Shown: positions 1 to 40,558, counted from the whole stretch's first letter. The stretch is 60,884 bases of DNA, filler included, from Jimgerdemannia flammicorona (GCA_003990765.1; 3 parts of 3 records of this genome joined end to end with filler, not necessarily neighbours in it), one strand, 5' to 3'. The notes: generated by a model from the letters alone, not told the origin. Program-made: numbers and translations.

Positions 1-3000
1 TTTTTTATAGTCACTTGGACTCTGCCATTTATTACTAGTCTATTGGTAAATACATGCACCCTTCACACTACCCAATTCCCATAGGGGAGTCCTCCCCCAC
101 ACTCTCCTATATAAGTACTACTCTCCCCTCCACTACCCTCACTCTCCCCCTGCTCCTCTGGCAGATTTTCTCCACCAATCGACACCTCTGACCACTCTGC
201 GGACTCCAGCCATGCCACCAGCCTGTCATTATATCTTCCATCAACCCCTGCCACCACAGAACCTGCACCCCCACACTCAAACTCCTCCCATCTTTGAAAA
301 CAAACAACCAGTGACCGGCTAACTCTACCCAAACTGCCAAAACCCACCCCAAGATAAGCCACTCATTTTCCACCCCCCCTACCAATCTATCCCTCAAATC
401 CTCCCACCGACCCCACTCACTATCTCCCCTATGCACTACACTAAGCTTCTTACCAACTGCCAACCAAAAGTCACTCAGCACCTCACATTCCCCTAGCCAA
501 TGTTCAGGCGTCTGCATATATCCCCCCTCCTGTCCTATATTGTGGCACTCCTTATAGTCAAAGCTCTTTCCTTCAACAAGGTGCTCCGATCAGAAGTTGA
601 GCATAACATTCCTCCTCAGCATCTGCCACCATACCACCCAATACTTTGATGGCATCCAACATCACACTCTATCACTCTATGTCCAAATGCCACTCCAGTC
701 CCACTTCTCGCCAATACCTGCTAGTTGCCAGCTGCTGGGCCAAAGATCCTAGCCTGGTCCCCACTGGCACTCCACTCTATCACTAATATTAAAGTCCAAA
801 AGGGGAGCACCCCCCAACAGTACTCAGTCCCATCTCCATATGGTTAGGCCTCATGGCTCCTCCCTCTCATTCTCTTGCCAACGAACTCTAATATGGTGAG
901 CACCATCTACCACTCCCCACCAGAAGCTTTTGAATCATATTCTTCCAATGCTCCAAAGTCCTACCAAGGACAGTAGATCTCCTGTAGAGCCTCTTGACAA
1001 TGACCTCATCTCCCAGACCTTCTGCATCAGGAGGACTCAGCTACCTCCATGCAACTCTACCACCCTCTTCAGCCACTATACACGTAAACAGAATAGCCAC
1101 TTTGGGAAGTCCACCAGCCCAAGGCCTCCTCTAATCACTGGAAGAGACAAAACCTCTCAACTGATCTGACTTCGTTTGCCAGCCCAGATCCACCTCTTGG
1201 CTAGTTTCATCAACCTCTTTACCACCCAGGCCAGAAAGTCCAGGTGATATGCCAAATACCACAACTTCGGAAGCCAATAAGTGTTCAGAATTGAGACTCA
1301 CCCCATCAAAGACAGGTGACGGCCACCCCAACTCTGCAAAGCTTCCTCCCAGATTACAATTCACTGCTCCCACCAGGGTCTCAGAAGGACTGACCCATAA
1401 ACTGACAGATATATACTCAGGTACCACACTGTCTCTCCCACTGGGACAATTGTTCCAATGACATCCCCTCCCACTAGACCATTGCCTAACACCATTGTCT
1501 CACACTTATGCTAATTAAGCCAAGCCCCAGAGTGGACCTCATACCATTCCACTGTCTTCTTGAGCTCCATGACATCCTCAATCGATTCCAGACTGACTAC
1601 CATGTCATCTGCAAAGGCACCAACTTTCCACCCAATACCATAGATAGAGAGCCCAACTATTTTCCTTCGAATCTTATCCATTAGCAGCTCCAGAGATAAA
1701 GTATACAAAATGAGAGATAGAGGGTCACTCCCCTGCCCATGGGAAAAGCCCCCCCTCTGTGTCCATTGCAAATGAAAGCAGCCCTACTTCTTTCCAGTAG
1801 ACTGATCATTGCTTTCCTGAACTGAGGATGTATACTGATTCTGGCCAGTACTCTTGCCAACCATGCTCATTGAACACAGTCATATGCCTTTTCCTAATCT
1901 AGGAAAACCAGTCGACCATCCAGGCCACATGCCTGCACTCCCTCAATAACTCCATGCACCCAAGCCATGCCATCTCTAATCAGCCAATCTCCAATAAAGC
2001 CACACTGCTCCTCACTTAGGACCTGCTAGGCCACCCTCTGCAATCTAGCCACTACCACCTTAGTGACCAACTTTCTGTCCATATCCAGCAGCATAATTGG
2101 CCTCCAATTCTTCCAGTCCTCCCTCCTCCCTTTGTTCTTAAAAATCAATGTCACCAGCCCAAGGTCCTGCTCCCCCACCCATCGCCCAGACTGTAGTATC
2201 AGATCGCACAATGCTGTGAACTCTCCCAATATTCCAGGGACTCTCACCATCTTCTTCCAGAAGTCCCAGGGCAGACCATCCTCCTCTGGTGCTGTGCCTG
2301 AAGTGGTTGCGGCCAGTACCCAGTGAATCTCCTCCTTCTGAACTAGTGATACCAAGTCACTCAGCCCTTCTACTTGTAGTGGGTGCCAGTCCTCCAGAGC
2401 ATGGTCAATGGCGGCATCATCTGCCCCATCCTCCTCCTCACTTCAAAGTCCACTCCAGCACCCCTTCAATACACCGAGAATGTCTTATACACCATATATT
2501 AGCAAACCATCAGGTGCCTCTACTCCCTCCCATCTTTGCTTCACCCTTCTCACCTGAAGGGCCCTCGTAAGATACTTTGAAGGTCTTTTTCCTTCCTCCT
2601 GCCCCTGCCATCATAGCCTTGCCATCAGGCCCTGTACTTGTGCCTCCTCCTCATCCCACAGCACCTGTTGTAGTTCCCCAATTTCCATTTTCACCCACCT
2701 TACTCTCCAGTCCTCCCCCCCCTCTTGCTCCACTAGACCAGCCCAATCCTCCAGAAGTCTAGTCAATCTAGCTGAAGCTCATCTCCCCTTTCTTCTCCTC
2801 CATCTTCCAGCCACTTTGCCAGCCTTGCTCCAGTAGACCCTGGCAGCATCTTTCAACCTCAACCACCTGGCACTAACTGGGGCACCCTCTTGTATCCAGC
2901 CCTCCACCTTTTGTTGAATTTCTACCACCTACTTATCCCACAGTATCTTATCAGCTAGCAAAGAGAAATTGAGGCACCAATGTCCAGGCCCATCCCCACT

Positions 3001-5861
3001 CCCCCCAAAATGTCCCTGCCCTAGCAAACCCCAATGATCCAACCATGAATACCACTCAACCTCCAGTGACTTCCACACATCGAGACCCAGCAGCTTGCTA
3101 TCAAAATCCAGTCAATTCTTATCTCCAGGCCTCTAGTCCAATGTATGTATACCCTCCTGTCACCCCAAATCCCCCTACCAGCATCCATCAGAGCACTCAA
3201 CCTTTCCACCTCCTCCCATGCCTCCAGCCCACCACTCTTACCCTCTGCCCCCCACCCTCTGTCAGTCTTATCCACCAATACATCTCTGACCATATTAAAT
3301 TCCCACCAAGCAAGTCTACACCCACCTCTGCAAGGACCCCACTCTCTCTAAGGTCCTTCACTCAATCAATATGCTCAATTCTCACAGCAGGGCAGTAGCA
3401 GGACCCCACTGTGGTTGGCTCCCAGCCTGCTCATATTTATTCTCTCCAAACCAGTCTGTCACCCCAGTTCCTCACATCCCGGATCTCCCCTCTACCTCTC
3501 TGAACCAGAATCCCAACCTTCCCCATCCAAACTGCCTCCCCTCCCCATTTCTTCATCCATTCTAGTCCTTCCAAGTCATCCTCACATCTGACATCCTGCA
3601 AAAGAAAGAGATCAGCCTCCAATCCCTTTAACTAAGTAAAAATATTCCAGCACCAAAAAGACCCCCATAGCCTGTTCACATTCAAAGAAAAAATGTTGGT
3701 TGTACTATTCATAAGGGAGATTATAAAGTTTCAAAAGAGTCCTCTACTGCTCTATGTCCACTTCCTTCTATGCTCTATCCAGATTGTGCTCTGCAATAGC
3801 TTCTGCCTCCTCAGCCCTCTTAGCCTCCAATTCAGCCAGGATCTCAGCCATCTCCCCATCCTCCTTTTCCTCGAACTCCTCGTGGTACTCCAAGCAAGCC
3901 TCTTACCAGAGCTACAGTCCATGCTGCTTAGCCCAACAGTGGGCAGTCCTTTCACCCACCACAACTGCCAGAGCAGCCTCCCTCTCCTTATTGATCTCAT
4001 ACCCCTCCTCCTCCAAGTATATCATCAGAATTTCTGCCTTCAATGCTGCCACCACTCCATCACCCTGCAGGATCCTTGTCCAATGCTCATTGCTCATCAC
4101 TTGGAGGTCAACTTCCCCCAGCTCTTCTGCTGTCAAGTTGTTCATCATCCGGCACACCCAGAGCAAATTCCCCACCTCTTTCCCTCCTGGGGTTACTGGC
4201 CTCCCTCCATCTAACATTGTAGTATCAGCCCCTATACTCGCCGACTCATTCCATCCCTCCTCAGGGACATCCACCAATTCTTCTTCTCCAGTTGCCTCTA
4301 CCAATCCCCCCTTCTCTACATTTGGAACTCCAAAGTACACCTGCTGAGTACCGCTCATCCATACATCCTCTACCACCCTACCTCTCACCACTGGTCCCCT
4401 TCTGATAAGGGGGGAGGGTGAAGGTGAATCCTCCCAGGTTTCCTCCCAAACCTCCAATGTACCATCCTCATATGGATTCTTGCTTGGCACCTTCTCGGCC
4501 TCCTCCTGACCCCCCTTCTCCATCCCTCTACTCCCAGCAGCCCAGACACTCATCTCAGCACCTCCAGTGGTTGCACTACCTCCTGCCTTACTCTTTGCCC
4601 CCACCCCCATTTTCTCCAACAACTCCCTCTGCCTTCTGCGCCCTTGGGACCTCTCCTATGCCACCTTATTGATGTGGACTCACTTCCCTCCAACTACCTC
4701 AAGATGTGTTGACTCCTTGAATGCCTTCCACACCTTTGCCCTCCTCTCTACTGCCCCACTCAACTCCTCCAGTGCTTCTAACAAATCCTCCTCCTCCTTG
4801 CTCCCCTTTACTCTCATCACCTTGCACAAGAAAGCCCCCCACACCATCCCCAAGGGCCAGTCCCAAGCCTTCCCAGTAGCCTCCCTCCCTGCCAACTGAA
4901 TCCTGACATCCACATCTTTTGTCCAGAGGGAGATTCCTTCCCACACTCTAAACCCAATATCAACCACCTCCCCATACTCCTCCATGATCTCCTCAACTTG
5001 CTTCCTCATCTCGACAGCAGTAACAGTGGAAACTCCTTTCACCAGAAGCTGCACTACTCTTGGGTCCCACCTCAGGCATCTCACCATTGGTACACACACC
5101 TCACCCACCATCATCCCAGTCTTCAGAGCCTCCTCCAATGGCCCAGCCTTCTCAAATTCCACCTCCACCTCTTCTAGGCCCTTCAGGAACTTAACAGACA
5201 CCGTACCACTCATTTGCTTCGCGATCAGCCCCAGAACCATTTTTGCCATCACTGCCAAGCCCCTGAAACACATCATAACTGCAAATTCTGGGATCAACTT
5301 CTTGAGTAATGGGGCCACTTCCAGTCCTATTACACTATCCACCAGGTCTCCTGGCCTTGTGCCCTCCCCACTGCTTGGTCCACCATCAGCAGTCCCATCT
5401 AGATTTTTTTCCAGATCACCCATCACACCCCCATCAACAGTCTCCGCCCCAGCTGCTACTCCCCCAGCTCCACCCCTATGGTCCTCCAGAGAGGCACCCC
5501 CATGAGGCTGCTGCCTTGTAGCCCTCACCGGCACCTTCCCTCCCTCAGTCAGCTCTTCAGTCCAGCTCCCTGCTGACCCCCCTTTACCTTCTCCACAAAG
5601 CTCACTCTACCAGACCCTTGACCTCCAGCTCTGCCCCCTCCTCCACTATGTCCTTCCACCAGCAGGCCCCTCATACTTCCCCCCAAGCCTGGGCCTCTCC
5701 CTACTTACTGCCACTTACATAAATACTCCAGGGCCACCCTGCCCAGTATGTACCTCAGGATGCTTGTAGGTTGCCATAATACTAGTAGCTTGTCTCCAGA
5801 AACTGTATTGAAAGTGTTGCCAAAAGGTTGTGTAATCTGAATGTTACCAGTAGAAGGGACA
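1..5861 (-). mobile_element. Full-length but degenerate L1/Tx1-like non-LTR retrotransposon (LINE copy A): ORF1 ~5700-3715, ORF2 ~3712-63 (APE endonuclease, RT, C-terminal Zn knuckle), poly(A) at window start
   Basis: Minus-strand fragments: APE (MNSTTNIFSLNVN.., FLLQDVR, IRIDWILI), RT (NWRPIMLLDMDRKLVTK, QGSDPLS, AFADD), Zn knuckle (..QTPEHWLGEC). 3' end AATAAA..GTGACTAT-poly(A) and 5' end (TGTCCCTTCTACTGGTAACATTCAG) both match copy B. Many stops and frameshifts. Confidence 0.9.
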
Positions 5862-8800
5862 GTTTTGTTCTTGTCCATTTCCTCATCTTTCATAATGACA
5901 CTCTGTCTTGAGCCTCTACTTTCCTTCAGGGTCTCCTTGGGTGCTGCTCTTTTCTCCCCTGCCCAAGCACTCACCCTCAACTCAACATCTTCAGTGGCAA
6001 TCCCCCCCTCTGCCTCCTCATCTAACTTTGCCAACAGCTCCTTCTGAATATATCTCCCCTATGCCCTCTCTTAGACTGCTCAAGCAAAAAGACAATTATG
6101 AATATATCTACCTATAAGGAAAAAATTAAAGAAAACTCTATTGAAGTTCTCATCAACAGTAGAGCAAACAAGTACTATTTTGATAAAGAGATCACTGATA
6201 AGCTCAGACTTAAGAAATAAAAAAATTCAGAAGGAAATATTACTATATTTAGAAATGAAACAATTTAGAAACTCTTTAAAATATGTAAAAATATACTTAT
6301 ACAACTAGGAAACTATACTATAAAACAGATATTCTATGTATATTATATATCTTTTAAGACATAATCTCATTCTTGAAAAATTCTGGCTCACTTAAGAAAA
6401 TTTATATATTAACTAATAAACTAATACAATCTCTCTAGGATATATCAAGTTATAGCTAGAATAGACTAAGAAGAAGATAAAATCTAAGTATAATATCATT
6501 TTTGCTATCTAAATGAAGAAGCTAATCTGGAAATCAGAACAATGTATCTATATATATACTATTAAAGAGCTATCAGCAGAAGATGATAATGATAATAATG
6601 ATCTTTCTGAACTATTGAAAGAAAAAAGCCTTTAGGAACTACTTAAACTACAAAGATATCTTTTAAGAATGTCAAGAACTACCACCTATCTGAATAGTAA
6701 AATATAGTATTAAAACTACTTCAGAAGCAGACTCTCTCTACTATAGAATATACTAACTAGATTAGTCTAAGCTAGAGACTCTTAAGAAATAGCTAGCAGA
6801 CCTGTCAAACAAAGGTCTCATATGTCTATCAAAATTATCATATAGTATACTAATTTTCTTTATTTATAAGAAAGATAAAAGTCTCTATATATATATTAAT
6901 TACCAAGTACTCAATAAGATATCTGTTAAGAACTAATATATACTCTTACAAATTAATAAACTACTTGACTAAGTATATAATGCCAAGATCTTTTCACTTA
7001 TTGATCTTATATCTAGATATTATCAAGAAAAAAGACAGTATTTCAAATAAGATTTAGACATTACAAATTCTATATAATATCTTTTAGACTTATCAATATA
7101 TATACTAGTAATCTTCTAGATACTAATGAATAATATATTTTGCAAATATCTTAAAGTATTTATTTTAGTATACTTGGATAATATTTTTATATATAGTATA
7201 TGTAGTACTATCTATTAATAATATCTACAGATGGTTTTTGATATACATACTTAAAGAACATAAGCTCTCAGTAAAAAAGAAGAAGTATTACTACTTTAAG
7301 AAAGAAATTAAATATCTAGGATATATTGTCTCAACAAATGATATTGCTATCAACTCCAAAAAAAACTGAAGTAATTTATAACTGGTCTATTTTGAAGACT
7401 CTCAAGTCTCTATAAGGGTTTAATAGATTAGCTGAATATTACTGAAGATTTATTCAAGAATTCTTAGCAATTGCCTCCTTACTTACAAATCTTTACAAGA
7501 AGAAAACCAATGTCAAAAAAGAATAGACAGAAGAATATACTATAGTAATCTCAAGAGAATACTAACCAAATATACTAATTCTGATTAGCCTAAACTCAAC
7601 AGAACTCTTCACTATTATTACAGATATCTCAAATATTATCATTAGAGCCATATTGATTCAGTATAAATATTCAGTTACATATCTATTCCAAAAGCTAAAT
7701 GAGTATAAAAATAACTATATAATATAAGATAAAGAACTTCTTACAGTTATCTGATCTCTGTAATTATAGAGATATTTTCTTCTTAGTAAGAAATTCATCT
7801 TATAGTTAGACTATTACATAAGTTCTATAATATATTTAGATATAACTAATCCTTATAGAAAGATAAGTATAATAGATACAGATTCTTATATCCTTTAATA
7901 TTGAAATAAGCACATTGCTAGTACTAAGAATAAAGTAGCTAATATACTTTCTGAAGTACTCAGAAGAATAATTTCATAGTAATTAACAATATCATTACTA
8001 GTTTATTTAAAAAGATCAAAAAGGGGTATACTAAGAATACTAATATATATATAAGAAATTATCAAAAAAATCTTCAAAGAAGGAAGCAATATTATGAAAA
8101 AGATATATAAGAATATTTCTGTTCAAAATAGATATATATATCTTAATAATATAAGAATTTGGATTTTTAACACTTCTATATACCTGCAAATTCTATAAGA
8201 ATTATATAATATACTTCTAGCTAGTTATATAGAATTTGACAAAATATACTAATATATTACTTAAGATTTCTACTAGTTTATAATGATAGCTAATATTAAG
8301 AACTATATTATCTTATAATGTTTGCTAAAGATATATACAAGCCTAGCAACTAAGCTCTAGCTGGAATACTATAGCTACTATCAATTTCTATCTAAAATTG
8401 AGATTATATCAGAATAAACTTTATTATCTAACTGTTAAAAATAAAGAAAAGAAGAGATATAATTATTGTCTTCATCAATTATCTCAGTAAGCAGGCTTAT
8501 TTCATTATAATAACTACTACTATAATAGCTCCAGAAACAGTATAATTATTTATTAATAATATATTCTATCTCTATAGATTATTATCAATAATCATCTCTG
8601 ATAGAGATATGAAATTTACAAATAACTTCTAGTGAGTGTCTTTAAAAGACTAGATATATAACTCAAGATATCTACTGCCTATTATACGTATATAGATAGA
8701 CAGTCAAACAGAATGAATCAATTGAATTCTGAGCAGATACTTAGTATCTACTAGAGCTATAAACAGAATGATTGAAATAAAAAAATAACTCTAGCTAAAT

Positions 8801-10540
8801 TTATATATAATAATAGTATAAGTATAAGTATAAAAATAACCTCATTTTATCTGAACTATGGATAATATCCCTGAACTCTCATAACTTATATAAGTAATAG
8901 TATTAGTAGTATAAGAAGTTATTAATATATATTATATAAGATACTATCTAGCAAGTATATAATATTCTTATAGAAGTATATATAAAGAATATATATAAGT
9001 AGTATAAACTAATAAAAATAAAAAAGAAGTTATATATAGAAAAAGGTAAATGAATATTACTTAGTATATAATACCTAACTCTAGATAATATAAGACTAAA
9101 AAAAAAACTTAAATCCTATTATATTAGATTATTTAAGATCTTAGAGAAGTATAGTCCTGTTATATATAAGTTAGACCTCTCAGTAGCTCTAGAAAAAATC
9201 CATCTAGTGTTTCATATATCTCAACTCTAGCTATATATATCAAAAACACTTTTGAAAAAAGAATAGTATTACTTTCAGATCTAATTATTATTAACTAAAA
9301 ACTAGAATATAAAATCAATTACATTCTGGATCATAAGGACTATTAATTTGGACAAGCTATTAAGCTTATCTAGTATTATCTTATAAAATGAAAAGAATAT
9401 ATTGAGTATGATACTATTTGAAAAAAAGAAGATAATCTTTTACTAAATATAGAAGAAGTAGTAATCTAATATAGATATCTGATATAATAGAAATTTTAAC
9501 AGAATTTTCAAAAGACAGTTATATCTCTAAATATCTCTAATAAAGAGAAGTATAAATAACCTAAACAATCCTATATAGATAACCTACTACAATATAAGTA
9601 CTCAGTAATAATACTGAGAATAAATCAAGAACAAAATTACTACTACTGATCTTATAGCTATTAAATACCAATAGAATTCTACTGAACTACTCTCTATCAA
9701 TATATAAATCTCTAGAGACTCAGATTCAAATAAAACCCAACAATATCTTAGAAGAATCTAATATTTTCAGATCTTTTATTACTAATAAAAATTAAAGGAG
9801 TACTATAAGATAAGATATCTTATTTATCAATAAGCTACTCTCAATAGTATTAAGTAATGAGTCTGTCTTTTCATTAATAACTATATCTATATTATTGTCA
9901 AAAGACTTTATATTCTTTTTGTATCTGACCCTAAGTTCTCAACTATCTCTATAGAGTATCTCTTGAAAATATTACTAATTTGAGTAATAAATAATAAAGC
10001 AATATTATTTTTTAAATAGTTTAGTATACTGCTCTTCAGTTTGATGAATATATATCTAGAGTTTAGTACTGAATCTAATAAGTAGGTTCAGACAAAGAAG
10101 AGAAGAATATAATGAATTATTATATATCTATAAGCTACTAGAATTTCCAATAGAAATTCTGATAAAAATTTCTATGGAATTTTCAACTAGTAGTTATAGA
10201 TACTGAATATAGTATATATACTATATAAAGATATACTCAGTATACTATATTTAATCATAGCTTTAAATTTATATAAATACTCTCTATTGAGTATATTGTA
10301 ACCTCAGCTCTACTTTTTTCAAATAAAGAATAAAGTAGTATTTCTATCATAGAACTCTCAGGTCTGACTTATTAATGATTCTGAACCTTATTAACTTAGA
10401 ATATAAGTATGGTACTTTCTAGTATAAGAATCCAAAAGTAATACTTAAACTATACTACTATAATAAACAATTAAAACTCAGTACTTCCTTATAAGAACTC
10501 AGAACTTAAGACCAATAGTTAATCCTGATTATCTATAATA
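5862..10540 (+). mobile_element. Heavily decayed Ty3/Gypsy chromovirus, 3' part (PR-RT-RH-IN-chromodomain, probable PPT 10094-10107 and 3' LTR from ~10108); 5' part cut off by LINE copy A
   Basis: Relic motifs: PR VLINSRA (from LIDSGA) ~6146; RT YLDNIFIYS ~7171; RNase H TDIS..IRAILIQ ~7620; IN ISDRD.KFT ~8592 and STAY....RQSNRMN ~8671; chromodomain EYKINYILDH..YLIK*KEY..TI*KKEDNL ~9305-9440. LTR boundaries are approximate. Confidence 0.85.
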
Positions 10541-10754
10541 TATTAATTTTATCAATATATATAGTTTTATTATAACTAAAATCAAATAGAGATATAAATA
10601 TATATATATATATTTTTTTAAAAAAAAAAATAAGTTTATAATTACTATTACTAGTTAATAATATAAGTTTTAGTAAATAAGATATATTAGTTAATAAAAA
10701 TAGTATCTATAGAATATAAGTACTATACTTAATATAAAAATAAATTTTATTTAC

Positions 10755-11103
10755 TGTAATATAGTAGGCATATAACCAGAGAAATACAGCAGATTTCTAT
10801 AACTCTTCTTGACTTCTCAGAGTCACAAGTAGTATCTATCTGATCTTATTATCAGACTATTAGAGTAAGACTCAAACTCTTTTGATTTGAGATTTATTTG
10901 CTCTAGATACTAGAATATTTATATAAGTTTGCTAGCTATAAGGTAACTAAGTTATGACTATATTTCCTATAAGTTACTTTTTACAAGTATAGATTCTCTA
11001 CATCTGTAAAATCTCTACATTTGTAAAGTTTCTACATTTGTGAAATAATTACAATTATATATCTATTTTCTATTTCTATTTCTATTTCATACTATATATT
11101 ATA
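10755..11103 (-). repeat. LTR (3' LTR) of TRIM-like element
   Basis: Colinear with 17631-17962; differences are mostly transitions plus small indels. Confidence 0.85.
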
Positions 11104-17211: not shown

Positions 17212-17212
17212 C

Positions 17213-17560: not shown

Positions 17561-17630
17561 TATCAGTTGTTTATTATTTAGCTTGAAAGTGAGAGATTCA
17601 TCTTGAATCATCAACTAATAGACATTAAGT

Positions 17631-20965: not shown

Positions 20966-20969
20966 CTAT

Positions 20970-30515: not shown

Positions 30516-30517
30516 TT

Positions 30518-30536
30518 TGGGGGCTCAACTGAGAAT
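30518..30536 (+). promoter_or_regulatory. Primer binding site, tRNA-Pro type (decayed)
   Basis: TGGGGGCTCAACTGAGAAT 2 nt after the LTR; reverting transitions gives TGGGGGCTCGACCGGGAAT, matching a tRNA-Pro 3' complement. Confidence 0.75.
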
Positions 30537-30584
30537 ATTTCAAAATTAACATGACTTTTCAGCTCATAAGAACCCACAGTCAAA

Positions 30585-32021
30585 TTGAATATATTTGATA
30601 TAACACCAATCTCTGCCACCACAGGAGAATCAGTTATCACTAGCATCTGGATAGGAAGAGAAGTAATCACATCAAGACTTGCCAACTACCCAGCATTAGA
30701 AGGATCCCAACCAGAACCAGAAGGCAGTATAGCCCAAAATCCCCAACCAGATCAACCAGATAACATAGGTGGCCCTGCTGGAGATTTCGAAGAACTTGCA
30801 CAAGAACTAGAAGATCTTATTATATAAGCCTGAGATCTTACAGCCAGATACCCCATATCAGCCCCATCAATCTCACTAATAGAACCTTTACCACAACCTC
30901 TTACAGAGTTGGAAGTAGCTCCTATCAGAATACCTAAACTCATTCCACTTCATCCAAGGTCCAGAACACTATCTTCAGGATATCCAAGCACCCCTATTTC
31001 CAGTGATAGTTCAGAAAGTGAACCAGAATCAGAATCCAGACCAGAACCAGAATTAGAAAAAAGTAATAATGAAATGGCCACCTTATTGCCAACCTTTGCA
31101 GAATACCCAGATGAAGACTCCAGAGAATTCCTTGATGGAATTGAAGGAATTGCAGCTCTGAGGAACCTCTCAGATAAAAGAAAAATTGCCATCTACAAGG
31201 CTTAGCTCAGAGAACCAGTTAGAGGAATTTTCCATCAAACAGCAGACAACCCAGATTCAGAACTGGTGAGACAGATACAAGTAGCAGTATCTTATGAGCT
31301 AGAATATGTGGCCATGGTCCACTGGCTCATTGAAAAGTATGCAGGAAATGAAATCTACCACAAGGCTCAAGAATCCATTGTAGGGATAAAGATGAATCTT
31401 GGAGAATCACCCAGAGCCTTCTTCATAAGAATCCAGAAGGGAATGCATGCTGCCAGGTTCAATGCCACTAACTAGGACATCATAGGTCCAATGACTTTCA
31501 TGAATGGAATTTTCCCAAACATTGTCCAGCATGTCTGCACCCTAGGCATCAGAAGGTCTGAAGAGCAAGTAGATGTAGCTCAAGGATTCTTTGATGTTAG
31601 ACAAGGAACTACCTGGAGTGATCATGGCAAGAAAGAAGATAAAGAAGACATCCTGGTCAAAGCCCTGCAGGGACTCCTTCAAGGACAAGAAAGATCTGAA
31701 GAAAGAAGGCCAGCCAAGGAAAAAAAGAAGGATAGAAGTGAAATCCAAGACCTTAGCTCCAAGTTGGACTGATTGGTTGGACAGATTGAAAAACTCACCA
31801 TATGTGAAAATCAGAGCTACCAAGACAACAGAGGATACCCACCACAGAGGAGCCAAGGTTATTCACCAATAGATAACAGAAACTACCAGCAAGAAGAAAG
31901 AAGATACCCTGTCCAAGATAGAGCTCAAGTCCAATGCTTCCACTATAGACAAATTGGACACTATGCCACTGAATGTAACAACAAAAGAAGTGACCGAAGG
32001 GACTCAGAATCATCAAACTGA
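30585..32021 (+). pseudogene. gag: gag (disrupted) with C-terminal CCHC zinc knuckle
   Basis: LPTFAEYPDEDSREFLDGIE capsid-like region; QCFHYRQIGHYATEC (Cx2Cx4Hx4C with one C>Y transition). Confidence 0.85.
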
Positions 32022-32589
32022 AGGAATGACACTCAGTATAGAAAGACTGAAGCTCATCCTGTTGAAGATTTTGAGGAGGTAAGCAATAGTAAAGACTACA
32101 GTGACCTGGACTTATACCCTACCAAGGTTACAACTTGGAAAACAGTCTACCCAGTAGAGAAAAGGAAGAGACCTGTAGGAAGACCATCCAGAAATATCAG
32201 CAGAAGAATTATCCAGGAGAAAGATGAAGAACATGAGGAGGAATAAGTAGAAATACCTCCCCAAACCCTCTCACCTTTTGTTCCTGAGACAAATGAGTTG
32301 CCACCAGAAGATGAAGAAATGGAACAAGAAGAATGAGAACCTGCTACCCCAAAGCCTAAGCAGAAGTACACTCTGAAGACTATGCCTAAAGATATCTATA
32401 ATAAAGTCTGGCAGAATATTCAAGAGGCCAAGATGGAAGTCCCACTCCTGCAGTTCCTGCAACTGATACCAGCTGGAGTCTGAAACAAATTATTGAGAAC
32501 AACCAGATCCAGCACTGGCTGAGTTCCAATTCCACAGCAAGGACCAGTTCCCATCTCTGCCCAAGTGGCTGGAAGGCATGTCAGCACTT

Positions 32590-35500
32590 ACCTACATGGA
32601 GATATTGAAGGACAAAAGATAAAGATCCTCATAGACATAGGAGTAGCTATCTGTATTATAGCTAAATGGTTCCTGGACACCCTCCAATGGCCCATTGATG
32701 GACCATCCAACCTCAGCATCATAGTAGCAGATGGAACCTGAACTCAACCCCTTGGAGAAGTACAAAACATCACCATCTCCCTTGGACACATTCAGTTCTC
32801 TATCCCAAAAGCTGTTGTCACTAAAGCTGTCACCTATTATATAATTCTTAGCACCAACTGGATGAAGGAAATGAATGCAGTTGTTGATATTGGTCAACAA
32901 GTACTCAAGTTTGACTACTGAGGCAAGAAGTACAGAGTCAAGATGATCAGTTATGAGCAATTAAAAAAGAAGAAGAAGGTCACTATTCAGGAGGAATATG
33001 CCAGTAGTGAAGAATCTACCACAGAAGAAGAGGAAGAATCTGAAAATGGAAATGATCCCAGACTCAATACTGATCAGAAGACAATGTGTGGGCCAAGAAC
33101 ACTATCTCTATTACCATTAGAGCAATTGCAGGAGAAATCAAAGGATGCCCCACCTACCTTAAGAGATACAGGTGTCTCAAGCATTCTTCCAAGATCATGG
33201 GAACAAGGAAATCATCTGGTACAGCCTGCTCTGAGTACAGAAAAAAGAAGAAGAAATGCAGACATGTTTCAGAAACACCTGCAACCAAAGCTGTGGAAGT
33301 ATAAGCAATTTGGGGACAAGAATCATCCAAGGAAGAAGAAGTTCCAGACCAAGAAGTTCCTGAACAAGAAGCACTTGAAGAAGAAGAGGTCTCCAAACTC
33401 ATTCTCTGGGATGACTCTCAGTGGACACCACCTGAAGACAATGACCCTTGGAATATAGAAGAAGGACCCAACATAATCACCATTATCCCCAAGAAAGAAA
33501 CTCATCAAGAAAAGGCTTTTCAGCTAGGAAGATGCCTACATCAAATGGTCTTCCACTCTCCCCAAGACTACTACTATCAGTGCCATTTACTAGACCAACA
33601 GGAAAGACATAGACCCTAGAGACCAGAACCCCTAAATACAGTTGCACAGTTAACTACCTTCCAAGAAGTTACTACCAAGTTGCAAAGTCAATTTAGAGGA
33701 CAAGGCCTCTTTACCCAAATAGATGTATACCCCTTGTCTACTCTTCCACCAACTTATGACCAAGATGGGTACCAATTCCCAAAATAATAAGAGATCAACA
33801 ACCAGGAATATCATTTCTGAGCAATGGAATATTGTAACCATTGAAGATACTCAGATTGCTGAGACTGCAGGCATCAGAAGATCCATCTCAGTTATGATGT
33901 TGCAGTTCACACCTTAAAGAGAGGAGATAACTGAAGTCAGATTTGAAAAAGCCAGACCAAAAAGCCAGGAAGAAGAACTCTCAAGATCAATGATTTAGGA
34001 GAAGACATCCTAGCTCTCATCAGACATGCAACCCACCAAGAAAGGGCAGAAGATGCCACCAACTTCATAGAAGCCCTAGACCCTACATGAAGAAGAGGAA
34101 TCAACTATCTCTGAGACCTCTCTACTGAAGCCAGATGGTCACACCTCAACCTCAGAGCCTGGAGACTCTCTACTAGTGGAGCTTCAGCCCTAGGACAGCC
34201 CAAACTCAGCAAGGACATTGCCCAGTATGCCCTGCTACATCACAAGGCCAAACCCTCGACCAAAGCCCACCCAGAAGATGTAGGGTATGATCTTCATAGT
34301 CTGGAGGATAAATCTATCAAATCTGAAAAAACCTTTATGATCAGAACCAGATTAGCCATACAGCCACCCCAAGGAGCTTACATCAAACTGATCTCAAGAT
34401 CTGAACTTGCCAGACAAGGAATAACTATAGAAGGAGGAACTACTGACCCAGGGTATATAGGTGAAATCAAGGTTATCCTACACAATAGTAGTACAGAATG
34501 GCACTGAATCATTAGAGGACAGAAGATTGCCCAAGCAGTCTTCATGAAGGTCATGATCCCACAATTACAAGAAGCCTCTGAATTGACTGAAGGAACAAGA
34601 CAAGCCAAAGGATTTGGAAGTTCAGACAAGAAGGTAGTATACCTCCTTCAAGTCAACCACCTTAAGAGGAATGTTCTCCAGCAAGTATATCAGCAATCAG
34701 TCAGACTGCACAAGAATCTTATCCTAGAGCCCAGAGAACAAACCACCTTCGAAATCTTTGCACTACCCCACCCCAGAAACCTTTTCTTTGAACCCAAGGA
34801 AGATATTCCACACCTGAACATAGAGGGACACACATTCCCTGACAAGATGAATCTAGTATACTCCCAAGCAACCAACCAAAGTTGGGAGACCATCATCTTG
34901 CTGAAAGGAACCATCATAGGACATCTGGTGCCTTTTCTCAACTGAACTCATAGGGAAGTTTATGAACTAAACCTATCAGGAAATGGCAAGAGGTCTCAGA
35001 AGAAAGGAAAGGCCCCTCTGTGACCCAGGAGACAGTGAAGCCTTCCACCAACATTGGAGAAGAATTGACACCCCATCAACAGCAACAACTAGTAGAACTT
35101 CTCAACAAATATCAAGATATCTTCACTACCAATTATGGCAACCTACCATACAATCCATCATATCATTACAGCATAAATATAGGAAATGCAACACCCATCT
35201 GACAGAAACCCTACAGAATACCCCATCACATAAAAATATTCAAAAAAAGAGCACATCCAAAAACTCTTAGACAATGGAGTCATCTGACCCTCTACCAGCC
35301 CCTGGGCCAGCCCTATACTTATTGTACCAAAGAAAGGAGGATGGAGACTCTGTGTAGATTATAGGAAACTCAACTCAGTCACTGAAAAGGATACCTATCC
35401 TTTGCCCAGAATTGGGATCAGTTACAAGATGCCAGATACTTCAGCAGTATGGACCTCTTTACAGAATTCCATAAGATCCTCATGGACCCCAAAGACATTC

Positions 35501-37507
35501 AAAAGACAACCTTTCTTGCCCTAGGAAAACTGTTTGAATATCTCCAAATACCCTTTGGACTTTTCAATGTACTCTCCACCTTTCAGAGGATGATGAATTC
35601 AGTCTATGCCCCCTTGATTCACCACTGCCTGGTTGTATATATAGACGATTCCAACATCTATTCAGCAAATTTTGAAGAACACCTGCACCACCTAGAGGAA
35701 TTCTTCAAGCTCACCTGCAAGAATCACTTGAGACTGAATGCAAAGAAATGCTACTTTGGGAAATAGAAACTCAAATTCCTTAGATTCATAGTTTCAAAAG
35801 AAGGAACCCATGCAGACCCAAAAAAAACTGAGAAGATCAACAATTGGCCAGTACCTAAGACCCGAAAGGAAATACTATCATTTCTGATGCTAGTATCCTA
35901 CTATAGAAGGTTTATCAAGGACTTTGTCCAAATCACTGCCCCAATCTGAATCCTTCTCAAATAAAGAAGTACCATTCAAATGGACAGAATTATAAGAAAA
36001 AGCCTTTAAAGAACTCAAGAACTACATGTCTACAGTACCAATCCTTGTGTACCCCAATCTACAGAAGCCATTCATCATACTTCTAAAGATGACCTTGGAG
36101 CAGTTCTAGCCCAAGAGGGACCTGATCAAAAACACCATATGATAGCTTATATAAGTAGAGCTACTAATCAGCAGCAGATGAACTATGGTAGCACTAAACT
36201 GAAATACCTTGTAGTTATATGAGTGATCACCCTGTTTAAGTATTACCTCATTGGAAAAAAGTTCACCCTGATCACAGATCATATAGCTCTCAAATAGCTA
36301 TTCAACCACAAGGAACTCACCAGAATCCTAGCCCACTGGATTCTTATTCTTCAGAATTACAAAATCACTATCATCTACAAAGCAGAGAAAGCTCACAATA
36401 ATGTTGATGTACTTTTCCACCAGCCCCAATGAACCAGAAGAAGGGTATTCCAAGGAACTACACCCTAAAGGAAGCTCCTCAGACCATCAAGACACAAGAA
36501 GATCTCATCCAAAAAGAACATCAGAAAGCCCACCAAGGATAGGCAAATATAGAAGAGAAGCTGCAAACAACACACCAACATTGGTCCAACCTTAGAACAT
36601 AAGTCCAGGACATACTCAAGAAATGTGACATCTGCCAGAAGTACCAAGATGGAAGAACTATCAAGAACCACTGCAACCAATTACACCACCAGACAACATC
36701 TTTCAGAGATGGAAAATAGATGTAATTGGACCTCTACCAGTTACACCAAGAAGAAACAAATATATCTTTGTACTTGTAGAACATCTGACCAAGTGGCCCA
36801 AGGCTTTCCCAATGGAAATCGCAGATGTCTTAACTATTATAGGCCTTCTCCATAGACTTACACTCAGATACAGACCCCTAGAAGAACTCATCTCTGACTG
36901 AGGCACAGAATTTATCAATAACATAATTACAAGTTATACCCAAATTCACAAGATTCACCTCAAATGGACCACATCATATCACTCTCAGACCAATGATATG
37001 ACAGAAAGAATGAACCAGACTATCAAGAAAGGACTTGCTCAAGTCAATCCTACCAATTGGGACCTCTGCTTACCTGAGATCCTATGGGAAATTTGGAACA
37101 CCCCTGCTGCCTCCACCAAACAGAAGCCATTCAAAATGATGTTTGCTAAGAAAACCAGAACTACTGACCATAAGAATCTCAGAGATCTTCTCAAGAAGGC
37201 AGAACAGTTACATAATCAAGCCCAAGGTCAGATTATCAAAGCCTAAGAAAGACAAAAGAAGTACTATAACTAGAAACAGAAGGATCAGAAGATCAAGATT
37301 GGAGATTAAGTATTAGTTTGGAGAAGTATAATTGAAATGAATTTTGCCACCAAATTGGAGTCCAAATGGAAAGAACCTTATTTTGTACACAATATCAGAG
37401 GAACTAGCATCTATTTAAGAAGTATGGATGGACAAACTCTGAGGACACCAGTATATATCAATCATCTCAAAATATACCTTTCTCCACATCATGAATCAGA
37501 GAGTTGA
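32590..37507 (+). pseudogene. pol: pol (disrupted): aspartic protease, accessory spacer, dUTPase, RT, RNase H, integrase (no chromodomain)
   Basis: PR KILIDIGVA ~32625; [24 protein letters not shown] ~35632; RH LGAVLAQ, ITDH, HNNVDVL; IN CDICQK, IDVIGPLP, ISD*GTEF, YHSQTNDMTERMN, WKEPYFV. Confidence 0.92.
34226..34627 (+). pseudogene. dut: Trimeric dUTPase domain within pol
   Basis: All five motifs recognisable: VGYDL, SRSELA (RSGLA), GGTTDPGYIGEI, QKIAQ, RQAKGFGSSD. One TGA stop at 34505 (CGA>TGA or TGG>TGA). Confidence 0.93.
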
Positions 37508-38006
37508 CAACTGCCTTCAAACTCTTATCCTTAGCTCATTTCAATTACTGTCAGTTCTCTTACCCCAATTTTGCAAAGTCAATGGGAACACTCTCCAGAA
37601 GATCCAGATTCATCAGGAGAATCTTGTCCTGGCCAGATGATTGCTACAGGTCTATCAACTCCAGGCCTATTATGCAATTGGAGAACAATTGCAGAACCTC
37701 CCAGTCCTAGAACAAACATACATCAGAAATACTACAGGACTATCAAGAAGAGATGCTACTGCTACAGACAGACTGTACACCCTTTATAAGTGAAACCCTG
37801 TAGCCCTGATACAAGTACAATTCTCCTAGTATGATACATAAGGAATGAACCTAGCCACCTATCTGAGCATCATCAATGCTGTTGAAGTCCTATTCCCAGA
37901 AAAAGAAAAAGAACCCTTGGAATGGAGCAACCATAGTACAGATGATGAGGATGATAAAACAGATATTGATGCAGAAGATACTTACCCATACTGAGATAAT
38001 GACTAA
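37491..38006 (+). pseudogene. Extra ~171-codon ORF between integrase and PPT (unknown function)
   Basis: Single frame MNQRVDNCL..QAYYAIGEQL..DRLYTLYK..acidic tail, interrupted only by TGA/TAG/TAA stops that transitions can explain; overlaps the pol stop. Confidence 0.65.
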
Positions 38007-38046
38007 AGGACAGTCTGAGGACAGACCATTCTTTAGTGGGGGCTGA

Positions 38047-39441
38047 TGTGATAAACTAAGATATACTGCATGAATTATACCTTAGCCAGATAATACAAAC
38101 AATTAGCTAGATGATGTGAATACACAATATAGTAACCAGTAACCATTGCTGTAGAAACTGTATAAATAGCCAGACTACCAGATAAGGTATATCTGTACAG
38201 GACCTGTACACCTGTGTCAGACCTATACACTTGTGCTGGACCTACACAACTTGCCATAAGTAGTAAATCTATAGTTAGCCACATAGCAACCAGATAGCAA
38301 CCAACTTGTATAAATTACCCCAGAGACAAGAGTGAATAAACCTCAGTCTGAATTGAAGTACAAACCAAAGAAGCCTCTAAATATTGAGCATTAGTCCCCT
38401 TATTCCTACTCTGGTCTACTTTCCAATATAAAGCTTGAAGATTTTGCTGCCAAGTTCAAGTGAAGAACTTCACTGCCTTTGGAATTATTGGTATACTTGC
38501 CAGACTAAGCTTGAAGAATTCAAGTTTGCCACCAAGTTCAAGGAGAACTTTACTGCTCTTTGAGTTATTCACCGTATTCCCAGAGAGCCCACAAGCCAGT
38601 CTCTTAATGCAACTTCACAGTGATCCATTCATGTAAATGAAACCAATCTAGACATAACTTGTCAAGAACCTGAGTTGTTTCCCAGTTAAAGCCAATTCAG
38701 GAAGAATCTGTACCATCTGAGTTATTTCCCAGAAGCCCGCTGATTTAGGAGAATCCATATCATCTACTATTTTCAAGTTATCTGTATTTCCAGAAGACCT
38801 ATATCACCTGAGTATTATTCCTAAAAGAGCCTGATCTGCATTATCTGAAGTTATCATACCATCTGAGCTATTCATTGTTCCCAGTGAGCCCAAGCTATTG
38901 AGTTACCCACCACCAGTATAGTTCCCAGTAAGAAGAATCTGTGATATTCAAGAAGCCTGCTGCTTTTGGAGAAGCCATGCCAAATCAAGTTATCCACCAG
39001 AAATTGCATACTTTTGGAAACCCATTATACTATATAGAGATCATCACACTACACAAGATCATCACACAGAAATCATATAAGGAGAACTGCTAAATTACTA
39101 GACCATCACACACAGAGATCATCACACTATATAAAGAAATCACTCACTACTCAAGAAGGAAACTGTTCGCACTACACATGAAATTCTATCAATTCTCAGT
39201 TGACCTAAGAAGAAAACCCATTCACACAAATCACCACTATACTCAGAGAACCATCTCAATAAGGAAATCATCAGAACTACTCACAGATATCCAGCTTTGA
39301 CTATTATACCACTAAACACCAATAAGGATCTTAGAAATCTTAGAACATTTTGTTACTTTTGATAAAGTAACTGGGGGCTCAAGCCAAACTACATCAACCC
39401 CCAACCTTGTAATTTGCCTTCATTGAGCCAGGCATATTACA
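38047..39441 (+). repeat. 3' LTR (1395 bp), preceded by PPT AGTGGGGG (38035-38042)
   Basis: Colinear with the 5' LTR; ends ATTACA. Confidence 0.95.
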
Positions 39442-40558
39442 ATATATCAAATATATAATTAATCATAAATATATATAAATATGTAAGAATAATTATATAT
39501 TTATTCTCTATAATTAGCTATTTATTTTAATTTTGCTAAAAACTTTGAATAACTCAAATTATTAATAAGTTGATAGTAAAACTATATATTATAAAGTTCA
39601 ATAGTATCAAAGTAGCTAATAGTAAAAAATATATATAATAATATTCTATCTCTATATAAATTATATAAACTTTATTTTTGATAAATTGAACAATAGTCTA
39701 ATTATTATCTATCTGATAAATAAATATAATATAAAGCTGAGAATACATATATAGCTTTTATACCAGCTTAAAGATATTAGTTATAATTTCTCCTACTTAT
39801 AATCAAATAACAGATATATATTAATGAAATTCTTTATACTCTTAAATAGAGACTCTTATAGATTATAAATACTATTCAGAATAGTGAAATAGATAATATG
39901 ACAAAAGAATTAATAAGATAGAATCAAACCAATAGTAAAATAAGATAATATAGCTAAAAATATAATAATATTTTATAATAATTAATCTATTTTCTATTTT
40001 TTTTTATTTTTTTTTTAATAAATCAAATTTCTGTAGGATTTTATTTGGAGAGAATATAGACTATATAGGCAAAATTCTCTCTTACCTCTCCTTGAGTACT
40101 ATCTTTCCATTATCTTTAAACTATAGAGAGAACTAGTAGTCTCACTATTCTAGCTATATAAGAGTAGTATTATATTGTAATAACTCTCACTTCTATCCCT
40201 CTCTTATCCTTTGGATAATTAGAGAAGTAGACTATTACTTAGGGACTTAGTACACAATGTGTACCAAGAAGCCTTCAGTTTGAGGAAGTGCTCACTTAAT
40301 AAGTAGTTGTAGCAGCAGTGCCTTATCTTTCAAAGGTCTTTCTCTGGGGTGCCTTCTGTTTCAAAGATCTTTCTCTTGTGCCCTATTTCGAGAGTCTTGT
40401 TCTTTGCTATACACAGACTGAATTCACCTTAGAATTCAGGTTCAATGGGTTTACTTAAGTCTTTGGGGATTTATATACCAGTCTCAGTTCTGGCAGAAGT
40501 TAGCTAGGCTTCTGGAGTTTAGTCAGAAATACTAGAGTCACTTAGATGTCATTACTAA

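Follow-up and report, generated by a model that had tools for sequence, protein, structure and literature searches.

Context-ranked C-to-T hypermutation of transposons and satellites in repeat islands of a putative Jimgerdemannia (Endogonales) genome

Repeat islands and genes of the window

The window, i.e. the whole stretch of 60,884 nucleotides that was analysed, consists of three contigs that were joined artificially, with linkers of the form N44-TTAATTAATTAA-N44 at 20232–20331 and 40559–40658. Two of the three contigs hold transposon islands (Table 1), and the sole genuine neighbourhood in the joined window is the border between transposable elements and genes at 18.6 kb. To judge from one 966-residue match, in which 957 of 966 aligned residues of the pentatricopeptide repeat (PPR) gene product are identical to an NCBI protein of Jimgerdemannia flammicorona, the source is this species or a near relative (Endogonales, Mucoromycota), in agreement with the first-pass annotation, in which the host did not look like a member of Pezizomycotina. 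Transposons are reported to occupy more than 77% of the 240-Mb genome of J. flammicorona (review PMC10386755).

Table 1. Features of the window, with the evidence for each and their base composition (o/e, observed/expected CpG)
Feature	Position	Strand	Evidence and domains	GC; CpG
LINE copy 1, least decayed	1..5900	-	RVT_1 matches in minus-strand read-through; RT remnant ~1490-2115	0.51; 37 vs 300 expected, o/e 0.12
Ty3/gypsy LTR-element relic	5901..11462	+	Pfam, single read-through frame: RT_RNaseH 2.7e-8 (RNase H ~7599-7814), SH3_Tf2-1 1.1e-10 (integrase SH3 ~9093-9236)	0.24; 1 vs 79 expected
LINE copy 2, inside relic	11463..17211	+	Exo_endo_phos and RVT_1 matches: APE endonuclease 13517-14143, RT 15052-15684	0.45; 4 vs 223 expected, o/e 0.02
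AT-rich relic continued, short tandem units	17212..18621	.	carries repeats of 10753-11105 and 11348-11462	
Gene-type DNA, CpG-normal	18622..20231	.		o/e 1.09 over 18701-20231
LINE copy 3, fragment, most decayed LINE	20332..22750	-	88% purine/pyrimidine identity to 15394-17091	0.43; o/e 0.05
AT-rich block	22751..29132	.	182-nt tandem array 25672-26886, inverted repeat 28088-28542	0.27; 2 vs 111 expected
5' LTR, 1381-1383 nt, TG...TA	29133..30515	+	alignment to 38047-39441	whole LTR element: 0.40; o/e 0.03
Ty3/gypsy-type interior	30516..38046	+	Pfam on read-through frames: protease 32598-32858, dUTPase 34256-34624, RT 35407-35784, RNase H 36076-36360, integrase 36492-36982	
3' LTR, ends CA	38047..39441	+	alignment to 29133-30515	
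AT-rich flank	39442..40558	.		0.25; o/e 0.06
Third contig, gene-rich internal control	40659..60884	.	SPRY, sugar transporter, nuclear VAR1/uS3m, PPR and Bin3 genes	o/e 1.04

The second LINE copy ends in a poly(A) tract (17185–17211), is inserted in a Ty3/gypsy relic older than itself, and is bounded by a 12-nt target site duplication (TSD; 11451–11462 and 17213–17224) with the same sequence on both sides. The claim that even TSDs carry transitions was not confirmed; the ATATAT flank of the LTR element is likewise identical on both sides, though ambiguous. In purine/pyrimidine space the two LTRs are 98% identical, the AT-rich repeats 94–96% and the LINEs (copy 1 against copies 2 and 3) 81–88%, and BLAST in the same space gave no sign that the AT-rich gypsy relic is related to the younger LTR element. 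The designation of 'chromovirus' given at first pass holds for both LTR elements as far as the Ty3/gypsy type is concerned and is not borne out as regards the chromodomain (PF00385), for which no match was obtained in the read-through frames of either element, where decay may hide one. Six read-through frames of the AT-rich block at 22751–29132 gave no Pfam match.

In-frame stops are many and frameshifts few in the interior of the LTR element. The stops had been thought to derive from CGA, CAA, CAG and TGG codons, and this was found to be partly so: at conserved columns, one C>T/G>A step suffices to explain two of five stops in the LTR element and leaves three unexplained, and it explains two of eight in the gypsy relic; for this reason stops were dropped as a main argument.

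The contrast in CpG content between repeats and genes is as stark as initially perceived. The repeat contigs contain 62 CpG in total against approximately 1,245 expected (42 against ~620 in 1–18621 and 20 against ~626 in 20332–40558), whereas there are 110 against 101 expected in the genes at 18701–20231 and 1336 against 1291 in those at 40659–60884; an AT-richer non-coding kilobase of the gene contig (43001–44000) has a ratio of 0.92. The edge of the depleted domain, seen on one contig, is abrupt, as a CpG-free run from 15514 to 18622 (3.1 kb) is followed by CpGs at 18622, 18627, 18636 and 18668 and thereafter by approximately one per 15 nt, and the ratio of 0.21 for 17212–18700 is reached only through these four. 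CpG loss is thus restricted to repeats and spares the genes. Decay within the repeats is graded, as had also been noticed, the LINEs being richer in GC than the AT-rich relics (GC 0.23–0.27, elsewhere given as 22–27%; CpG o/e 0.01–0.06), in which 54–63% of the surviving cytosines stand in CpT (63% in the gypsy relic) against 22% in genes.

Context, strand and direction of the changes

Both LTRs of a retroelement are identical at integration, so that the 169 transitions by which the present pair differs arose in the chromosome. Over 1405 columns these are accompanied by 6 transversions and 36 indel columns (a second aligner gave 170:6), and a recount of the first 125 aligned columns returned exactly the 16 differences, transitions throughout, that had been recorded before. 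Transition to transversion ratios of 28:1, 43:1 and 28:1 were obtained for three pairs identical at origin, namely the LTRs and two relic repeat pairs (pair X, 43 transitions to 1 transversion; pair Y, 28 to 1). These exceed, as expected at first pass, the 6–8 : 1–3 of a tiny single-copy control, which consists of nine amino-acid differences to the J. flammicorona protein (six forced transitions, one forced transversion, two ambiguous). Transitions also prevail in the tandem array at 25672–26886, where 72 columns are transition-only, 9 transversion-only and 8 mixed, and in the inverted repeat at 28088–28542 (28:7). The dominance of transitions among differences between repeat copies (169:6, 43:1, 28:1) is a hallmark of canonical RIP.

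The changes follow a ranking of contexts, CG > CA > CC >> CT. Sites differing between the LTR copies amount to 55/60 for CG (0.92), 74/214 for CA (0.35), 32/140 for CC (0.23) and 8/184 for CT (0.04), with odds ratios of 11.6 for CA against CT (p=6e-15) and 6.5 for CC against CT (p=7e-7). The same order was obtained in three independent AT-rich pairs, at 15/16, 42/77, 19/38 and 19/81, respectively (0.94/0.55/0.50/0.23). The earlier observation that LTR transitions fall in CpG, CpA and CpC is therefore borne out by the context counts, CpT being nearly spared, and isolated differences in the LTR pair repeat the pattern with 73 YpA and 24 YpC against 8 YpT. CHG-type (plant-like) methylation was ruled out, as CpA>TpA changes are not tied to one following base (CAA 20, CAT 17, CAC 14, CAG 13). 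CCA>TCA accounts for about 60% of the changes at CpC (14/24 in the LTRs, 8/11 in the polarised set), which might reflect former CCG sites.

The order of contexts in Neurospora RIP is CpA >> CpT > CpG > CpC. Within the window, RIP-type indices, by which CpA preference is judged, are found for the AT relics and are absent from the LINEs and from the LTR element, and CpG is lost before CpA. Most 1-kb windows of the relics pass the thresholds of both classical indices, with TpA/ApT of 1.04–1.36 and (CpA+TpG)/(ApC+GpT) of 0.59–1.0 at 6–11 kb, whereas the second index stands at 1.3–1.8, beyond its threshold, in the LINEs and the LTR element.

Both strands are mutated at similar per-base rates in the LINE triple and in the LTRs. 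Strand-clustered C>T runs, proposed at first pass as a check, are absent from both LTRs, where runs per mutation are 0.536 and 0.535 against means of 0.508 and 0.513 under a null matched for context (P=0.69 and 0.66, respectively). No single-strand episode in the style of Neurospora RIP is hence visible, although many superimposed rounds could mask such runs. One-strand deamination was considered as the source of the extreme GC skew in the LINEs and was rejected, since the three-copy alignment, with 249 G>A and 77 C>T, yields similar per-base rates for the two and the sense strand shows no richness in T.

Three tests, based on metagenome copies, conserved residues and the LINE triple, give C>T/G>A as the direction of change. 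For the first of these, 2456 contig pieces matching the LTR element (29133–39441) were drawn from a soil metagenome in which 7% of the sampled words occur and which served for variant letters only, its copies perhaps belonging to other strains or species. At the 40 best-supported of 759 variant places, where all contigs differ from the window, T/A in the window stands against C/G in the family in 27 cases, the reverse in 6 and a transversion in 7 (27 against 6, binomial p=3e-4; 26 of the 27 non-CpG), while all 759 variable places comprise 405 of C>T/G>A type and 273 of the reverse. Codons at conserved residues show 51 changes of C>T/G>A type, 6 reverse and 41 of transversion type in the LTR element, and 36 against 4 reverse in the gypsy relic. 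Forty-five unrelated metagenome gypsy elements gave 748:253 (pooled p=7e-4), and as their polarity is already approximately 3:1, the codon test alone is only moderately discriminating; these relatives are all at most 44% identical and include no same-family copy, which precluded a DNA-level consensus. By majority rule, the third LINE has 113 G>A and 30 C>T changes of its own, while the reverse changes A>G and T>C number 23 and 18.

Methylation, deamination and alternative causes

The context ranking indicates a methyltransferase of DIM-2 type rather than RID. According to PMC9963178, RID-1 is exclusive to Pezizomycotina and DIM-2-like homologues are present in Endogonales, and J. flammicorona AD002 is listed in its table SD01 with three DIM2-class proteins (JGI 471264, 479070 and 483080) and no RID. 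Glomeromycotina (Gigaspora, Rhizophagus) are likewise credited with DIM-2-like genes in that table, and such genes are also known from Phycomyces. We infer methylation as the cause of the decay and DIM-2-like enzymes as its agents: repeat islands of Endogonales would carry DIM-2-type multi-context 5-methylcytosine confined to repeats, the deamination of which results in C-to-T hypermutation, a reading to which we assign a probability of roughly 0.65. Transposons and satellites would lie together in a sharply bounded chromatin domain, within which such C5-methyltransferases would act on cytosines with the preference CG > CA > CC >> CT, and 5-methylcytosine would become thymine either by spontaneous deamination or through the enzyme itself. 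All CpG would be lost first and CpA and CpC next, while frames would be destroyed by substitutions and stops with few frameshifts, and AT-rich relics whose few cytosines stand in CpT would be the end state. It speaks against this reading that the DIM-2-like genes are known from a published table of one strain, AD002.

A rather improbable alternative, which overlaps with DIM-2-type methylation and differs from it solely in the deamination step, is that of an active mutator analogous to RIP, triggered by homology or heterochromatin and run by DIM-2-like enzymes instead of RID in premeiotic or mitotic nuclei, with enzymatic and episodic conversion. Such a mutator finds precedent in the DIM-2-dependent C>T mutation of Neurospora (bioRxiv 10.1101/115501) and Zymoseptoria (PMC8016269), and the three DIM2-class paralogues tabulated for J. 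flammicorona would be at its disposal. It would also account for a mutational load that is very high relative to background: per LTR copy, 16–18% of CpA, 10–13% of CpC and approximately 46% of reconstructed-CpG cytosines are mutated, almost no reconstructed CpG remains intact in both copies, and the two copies together present 6 transversions in ~1,370 columns. We estimate the CpA rate at approximately 9–17 times that of the CpT context, which is probably more than partial non-CpG methylation combined with mammalian-type deamination would yield. The LTR differences are, furthermore, patchy, with one 83-nt stretch devoid of any (p=0.014), and counts per 100-nt bin are over-dispersed (p=0.007). 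Against episodic conversion stands the lack of C>T versus G>A run clustering in either LTR, and the grading of decay with stratigraphic age is fitted as well by a continuous process. The first-pass annotation had offered dense multi-context 5-methylcytosine with deamination, or an active RIP-like defence, and the data support these as a pair, without separating the two and without any observation that fully refutes them.

Changes of C>T/G>A type with a context preference might also be the work of a DNA cytidine deaminase, AID/APOBEC-like or of another kind, that needs no methylation and attacks retroelement cDNA or heterochromatin, and the LTR element encodes its own dUTPase, a tool of retroelements against uracil in DNA. 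This is nevertheless unlikely, as the 169 LTR transitions arose after integration, tandem arrays which are not retroelements share the spectrum, both strands are affected at similar rates, and the context ranking equals a known methyltransferase preference. An APOBEC-type signature, i.e. sense-strand G>A asymmetry confined to retroelements and predating integration, was not found in the LTRs, the LINEs or the tandem array.

Depletion in the repeats is everywhere strongest and most complete for CpG, and 25 TG/CA doublets in the LTR pair attest to classic two-way CpG decay. Both would be expected if ordinary maintenance methylation of the DNMT1/DNMT5 type, known from basidiomycetes, were limited to CpG and followed by passive deamination; transitions outside CpG would then reflect normal mutation bias in relaxed DNA. 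The context counts already contradict this, since CpG decay explains only about 55 LTR transitions and leaves 114 of 169 outside the CpG classes, where CpA and CpC are mutated 6–12 times as often as CpT and the transition to transversion ratio is still approximately 19:1; the suggestion made at first pass that the transition excess reaches beyond CpG is thereby confirmed. Among the DNMT1 rows examined in the published table, moreover, Endogone sp. has one and Jimgerdemannia has none (PMC9963178), and we regard CpG-only methylation as very unlikely. Canonical RID-dependent RIP of the Neurospora type can be virtually dismissed despite the index values of the AT relics, given that RID is reported only from Pezizomycotina (PMC9963178) while the present organism belongs to Mucoromycota, that the first target is CpG and not CpA, that the second index is not passed by the LINEs or by the LTR element and that strand runs are lacking.

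Related systems and significance

The closest parallel to DIM-2-type methylation as invoked here is Dim2 of Zymoseptoria tritici (Moller et al. 2021, PMC8016269), which likewise targets transposons, prefers CG for methylation, followed by CA and CC, and leaves CT almost untouched, in the order of the mutation ranking found here, and promotes C>T changes (>95% of changes) in repeats during mitosis, without a need for RID and in a manner its authors describe as resembling mitotic RIP. That organism is an ascomycete whose mutator acts on CA (>98%) and spares CG, whereas CG is erased first and most depleted in the window, pointing to two superimposed processes or to a different behaviour of the enzyme; the Zymoseptoria case is, in addition, experimental, while that of Jimgerdemannia is deduced from sequence. 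The DIM-2/DIM-5/HP1 branch of RIP in Neurospora crassa (Gladyshev & Kleckner 2017, bioRxiv 10.1101/115501) also employs the DNMT1-related DIM-2, which is able to mediate RIP-type C-to-T mutation of repeats via heterochromatin and independently of RID, but it is premeiotic, triggered by homology and described from a Pezizomycotina species, and the Jimgerdemannia LTRs are without strand runs. With canonical RIP the present case shares irreversible C>T/G>A decay of every repeat class to AT-rich relics and the loss of frames mostly through stops and substitutions with few frameshifts; it differs in the sparing of CpT, in having CpG as first target, and in that no RID is reported from its lineage in the published tables. 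The CpG hypermutation of Basidiomycota (DNMT1/DNMT5; review PMC13297926) is similarly confined to transposon-rich regions with genes keeping their CpG, yet Jimgerdemannia is heavily mutated at CpA and CpC also and the published table points to the DIM-2 class and not to the DNMT1 class.

RIP-like mutation of repeats has so far been treated as an ascomycete speciality, and a 2025 screen of ~1,200 fungal genomes describes RIP-like signatures as unique to that phylum (PMC12543289). Our literature search found no report of such repeat hypermutation in Endogonales or Mucoromycota, although the genome paper (10.1111/nph.15613) may bear on this claim. In the window, LINEs, LTR elements and satellites of a root-associated symbiont of Mucoromycota clearly show C>T hypermutation that is polarised and specific to context, and lineages in which CpG is erased first can be overlooked by k-mer screens that look for AT-rich CpA products.

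As a tentative conjecture from these sequences, Endogonales might run a RID-independent, enzymatic C-to-T mutator of DIM-2 class against repeats, either ancestral to the fungal DNMT1/DIM-2 superfamily or convergent in Mucoromycota. If so, repeat hypermutation by a methyltransferase would not be an ascomycete invention, and the mutator would still have failed to stop the expansion of transposons to their present share of the genome. Should the pattern prove genome-wide, methylation-coupled genome defence would originate deeper in the fungal tree, or a convergent case would be established; an irreversible mutator directed against transposons would be at work in a very large genome that is nevertheless filled with them, and Jimgerdemannia would offer a natural system in which to ask whether DIM-2 enzymes alone are mutators.

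Make-up of the window and its host

The linkers at 20232-20331 and 40559-40658, each N44-TTAATTAATTAA-N44, are of the contig-joining type, and the window is therefore composed of three contigs, A (1-20231), B (20332-40558) and C (40659-60884); apparent neighbourhoods across the linkers are non-physical. Fungal genes with introns are found on contig C, namely SPRY, sugar transporter, nuclear VAR1/uS3m, a 1119-codon PPR ORF and Bin3. Since the PPR ORF is identical at 957 of 966 positions to 'hypothetical protein [Jimgerdemannia flammicorona]', and this species is placed in the Endogonales (Mucoromycotina, Mucoromycota), the host is J. flammicorona itself or a very close relation. This fungus is early-diverging and lies, as the first-pass annotation had supposed, outside the Pezizomycotina. 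A CCATCC/CCCATC hexamer array at 44689-44802, within a long ORF of contig C, yields a proline/histidine/serine-rich low-complexity stretch.

Repeat features of contigs A and B
Feature	Position	Strand	Content
LINE1	1-5900	-	RT remnant
AT-rich Ty3/gypsy relic	5901-11462		RNase H and integrase-SH3 remnants sharing one reading frame
LINE2, inserted into relic	11463-17211	+	APE endonuclease, RT, poly(A) tail, identical 12-nt target-site duplication
Relic remainder	17212-18621		followed by CpG-normal gene DNA
LINE3 fragment	20332-22750	-	
AT-rich block	22751-29132		182-nt tandem array 25672-26886; inverted repeat 28088-28542
Complete Ty3/gypsy-type element (LTR element)	29133-39441		1.38-kb LTRs; protease, dUTPase, RT, RNase H and integrase remnants
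AT-rich flank	3' of LTR element in contig B		

No recognisable protein was found in the AT-rich block, and as no chromodomain was detected in either the relic or the LTR element, the label 'chromovirus' applied earlier is unverified. Transitions had also been claimed for the target-site duplications, with which the duplication of LINE2, the same on both sides, does not agree. A dUTPase domain (Pfam, 6e-22) lies at 34256-34624, between the protease and RT of the LTR element; dUTPase-bearing fungal gypsy elements have been described from basidiomycetes. That such a domain occurs in a family probably exposed to heavy deamination may be of interest.

Substitution spectrum and sequence context

The LTRs of one element are identical at integration. 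Those of the LTR element (29133-30515 and 38047-39441) now differ by 169 transitions, 6 transversions and 36 indel columns over 1405 columns (170:6 with a second aligner), and the earlier count by eye of 16 differences in the first 125 columns, all transitions, proved exact. Transitions also outnumbered transversions between the X repeats (10753-11105 and 17629-17964; 43:1), between two tandem units (11348-11462 and 17385-17499; 28:1) and in the inverted repeat (28:7), and the variable columns of the 182-nt array comprised 72 transition-only, 9 transversion-only and 8 mixed columns. When every base was recoded as purine or pyrimidine, the recomputed identity rose from 85% to 98% for the LTRs, from 77% to 94-95% for the 182-nt array, from 83% to 96% for the X repeats and from about 65-69% to 81-88% for the LINE copies, which also hold many transversions (Ts:Tv 1.5-2.5), as expected of members of old subfamilies. 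A weak and tiny single-copy control, nine amino-acid substitutions relative to the NCBI protein (6 requiring a transition, 1 requiring a transversion, 2 ambiguous), hints that the baseline bias is much lower than 28:1.

Among the 169 LTR transitions, 50 form 25 adjacent TG/CA doublets, each a single CpG decayed oppositely in the two copies, and 5 are CG/TG differences; isolated Y differences stand before A in 73 cases, before C in 24 and before T in 8, with 9 ambiguous. Counted on a C/G-restored reference, the sites differing between the copies were 55 of 60 for CG, 74 of 214 for CA, 32 of 140 for CC and only 8 of 184 for CT (odds ratios: CA vs CT 11.6, p=6e-15; CC vs CT 6.5, p=7e-7; CA vs CC 1.8, p=0.02), which bears out the multi-context transitions described in the first-pass annotation. 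Three independent AT-rich pairs, pooled, gave the same order (CG 15/16, CA 42/77, CC 19/38, CT 19/81). The end state of the relics (22-27% GC) agrees with this ranking: T follows 54-63% of their remaining cytosines vs 22% in genes, CpT/ApG are over-represented (1.4-1.7), CpA/TpG depleted (0.7-0.9) and TpA enriched (1.1-1.2). A CHG-type pattern was rejected because CpA>TpA changes take place whatever the third base. CpC events are mostly CCA>TCA (14 of the 24 between the LTRs; 8 of 11 in a metagenome-polarised set, 30365-38052), an excess which may come from sites that were once CCG or from a preference of the putative enzyme for this trinucleotide.

The near absence of CpG from repeats and its abundance in genes were likewise upheld, observed/expected counts being 37/300, 1/79, 4/223, 4/85, 2/111, 13/413 and 1/18 in successive repeat blocks vs 110/101 and 1336/1291 in genes. 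The depleted domain has a sharp edge within contig A, where no CpG occurs over 15515-18621 and one per about 15 nt thereafter. Low GC or non-coding status was rejected as the cause of this loss, since an AT-richer non-coding kilobase of contig C (43001-44000, GC 0.41) retains a CpG o/e of 0.92.

Direction and distribution of the changes

Three tests, using metagenome copies, conserved codons and the LINE triple, agree on a C>T/G>A polarity. In a soil metagenome (run X1), 2456 contig pieces matched the LTR element at 80% likeness or more, and as 211 of these were at least 99% alike, the metagenome includes this fungus or one very close to it. At the 759 places variable between metagenome and window (678 transitions, 81 transversions), the window carried T/A against C/G in other copies at 405 and the reverse at 273 (p=5e-7, all 759 places); among the best-supported 40 of the 759, at which every matching metagenome contig departs from the window, the figures were 27 and 6, with 7 transversions (p=3e-4), and the base following those 27 was A in 9, C in 11, T in 6 and G in 1. 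The family of the LTR element stands at high summed depth in this metagenome, and joints resembling solo LTRs, which skip about 8.9 kb from one LTR to the other, were also observed.

The codon test was confined to columns with a residue common to no fewer than half of the Ty3/gypsy homologues (15 or more) and to window codons one step away from that residue. It gave 51 C>T/G>A-type, 6 reverse and 41 transversion-type changes for the LTR element, and 36, 4 and 15 for the relic. Since 45 unrelated metagenome elements gave 748:253:1590, a codon baseline of about 3:1, the two window elements exceed it to a moderate degree (pooled p=7e-4; measured against transversions, p=7e-6 and 3e-8). One distant gypsy relative from a metagenome, locus L037 (6657 nt; GC 0.33, CpG o/e 0.01), seems to be hypermutated as well, its codon changes of C>T/G>A type exceeding the reverse by 40:4. 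Codon bias is similar in the AT-rich loci L039 and L043, whose CpG is normal.

By majority rule, the three-copy LINE alignment yielded 249 G>A, 133 A>G, 77 C>T and 82 T>C changes on the sense strand. The most decayed copy had 143 forward vs 41 reverse changes, and the apparent reverse pattern of the least decayed is expected from parallel changes in the other two. Per-base rates of G>A and C>T were similar, so both strands are affected, and as the sense strand is also not T-rich, the extreme strand composition of this family (G 29-36%, C only 11-14%; GC skew about 0.5) looks native rather than a product of decay.

The claim of graded decay held: from LINE1 through LINE2 to LINE3, GC (0.51, 0.45, 0.43) and CpA o/e (1.26, 1.12, 0.98) fall and TpA o/e rises (0.71, 0.88, 1.15). 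The relic is far more decayed than LINE2 and, since LINE2 with its duplication is inserted in it, older. CpG is lost first, completely even in the youngest LTR pair, CpA and CpC next and CpT last.

A RIP-like process had been proposed, and strand-clustered C>T runs are a criterion for RIP; in both LTRs, same-strand runs were no longer (P=0.69 and 0.66) than under a null in which sites mutate independently at the observed context-specific probabilities. LTR mutations are somewhat patchy, being over-dispersed in 100-nt bins (p=0.007), which could reflect local gene conversion or patchy targeting, and a CpA-rich 83-nt stretch identical between the copies (29330-29412, columns 197-280; p=0.014, context-matched null) may mark either a tract of gene conversion or a patch that is protected.

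Candidate mechanism and its relatives

In Zymoseptoria, according to the accessible part of PMC8016269, Dim2 methylates transposons at CG, then CA, then CC, leaving CT almost untouched. As the mutation ranking observed here equals that methylation ranking, the best explanation, which we would put at roughly two chances in three from sequence evidence, is DIM-2-type methylation of the repeat domains in several contexts, after which 5mC would be converted to T, spontaneously or by catalysis. A mutation load that is high compared with the transversions, together with the patchiness, points more towards catalysed conversion; the graded decay and lack of strand runs point more towards a continuous process.

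Canonical RIP requires RID. The strand clustering expected of it was not seen in either LTR, and a survey of chromatin genes in Mucoromycota (PMC9963178), in its accessible text, reports RID solely from Pezizomycotina. A CpG-only maintenance methylation system cannot account for the measured spectrum, with which it is incompatible. Nor can editing of retroelement cDNA apply, since the two LTRs diverged only once integrated, the tandem arrays are affected too and both strands are involved.

For DIM-2-type methylation, the text of PMC9963178 records DIM-2-like homologues in Endogonales and Glomeromycota; its table SD01 gives three DIM2-class proteins for one strain, J. flammicorona AD002, and the DNMT1 rows in parts 229-231 of that table include Endogone sp. 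and not Jimgerdemannia. Zymoseptoria Dim2 raises C>T mutation more than 10-fold in methylated repeats during mitotic growth (PMC8016269, accessible part), and DIM-2 of Neurospora is itself able, together with DIM-5 and HP1, to bring about mutation of the RIP type (bioRxiv 10.1101/115501, accessible part). Unlike the Zymoseptoria mutator, which is described in that part of PMC8016269 as sparing CG, the process in Jimgerdemannia repeats erased CG first.

A 2025 kingdom-wide k-mer screen, in the accessible part of PMC12543289, presents repeat-enriched mutation signatures as unique to ascomycetes, and our literature searches turned up no paper describing hypermutation, RIP-like or multi-context, for Endogonales or Mucoromycota, a point on which the J. 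flammicorona genome paper could bear. DIM-2-linked C>T hypermutation is itself already known; judging from one 40-kb sample and one metagenome, what would be new is its occurrence outside the Ascomycota, with CpG as its first target.
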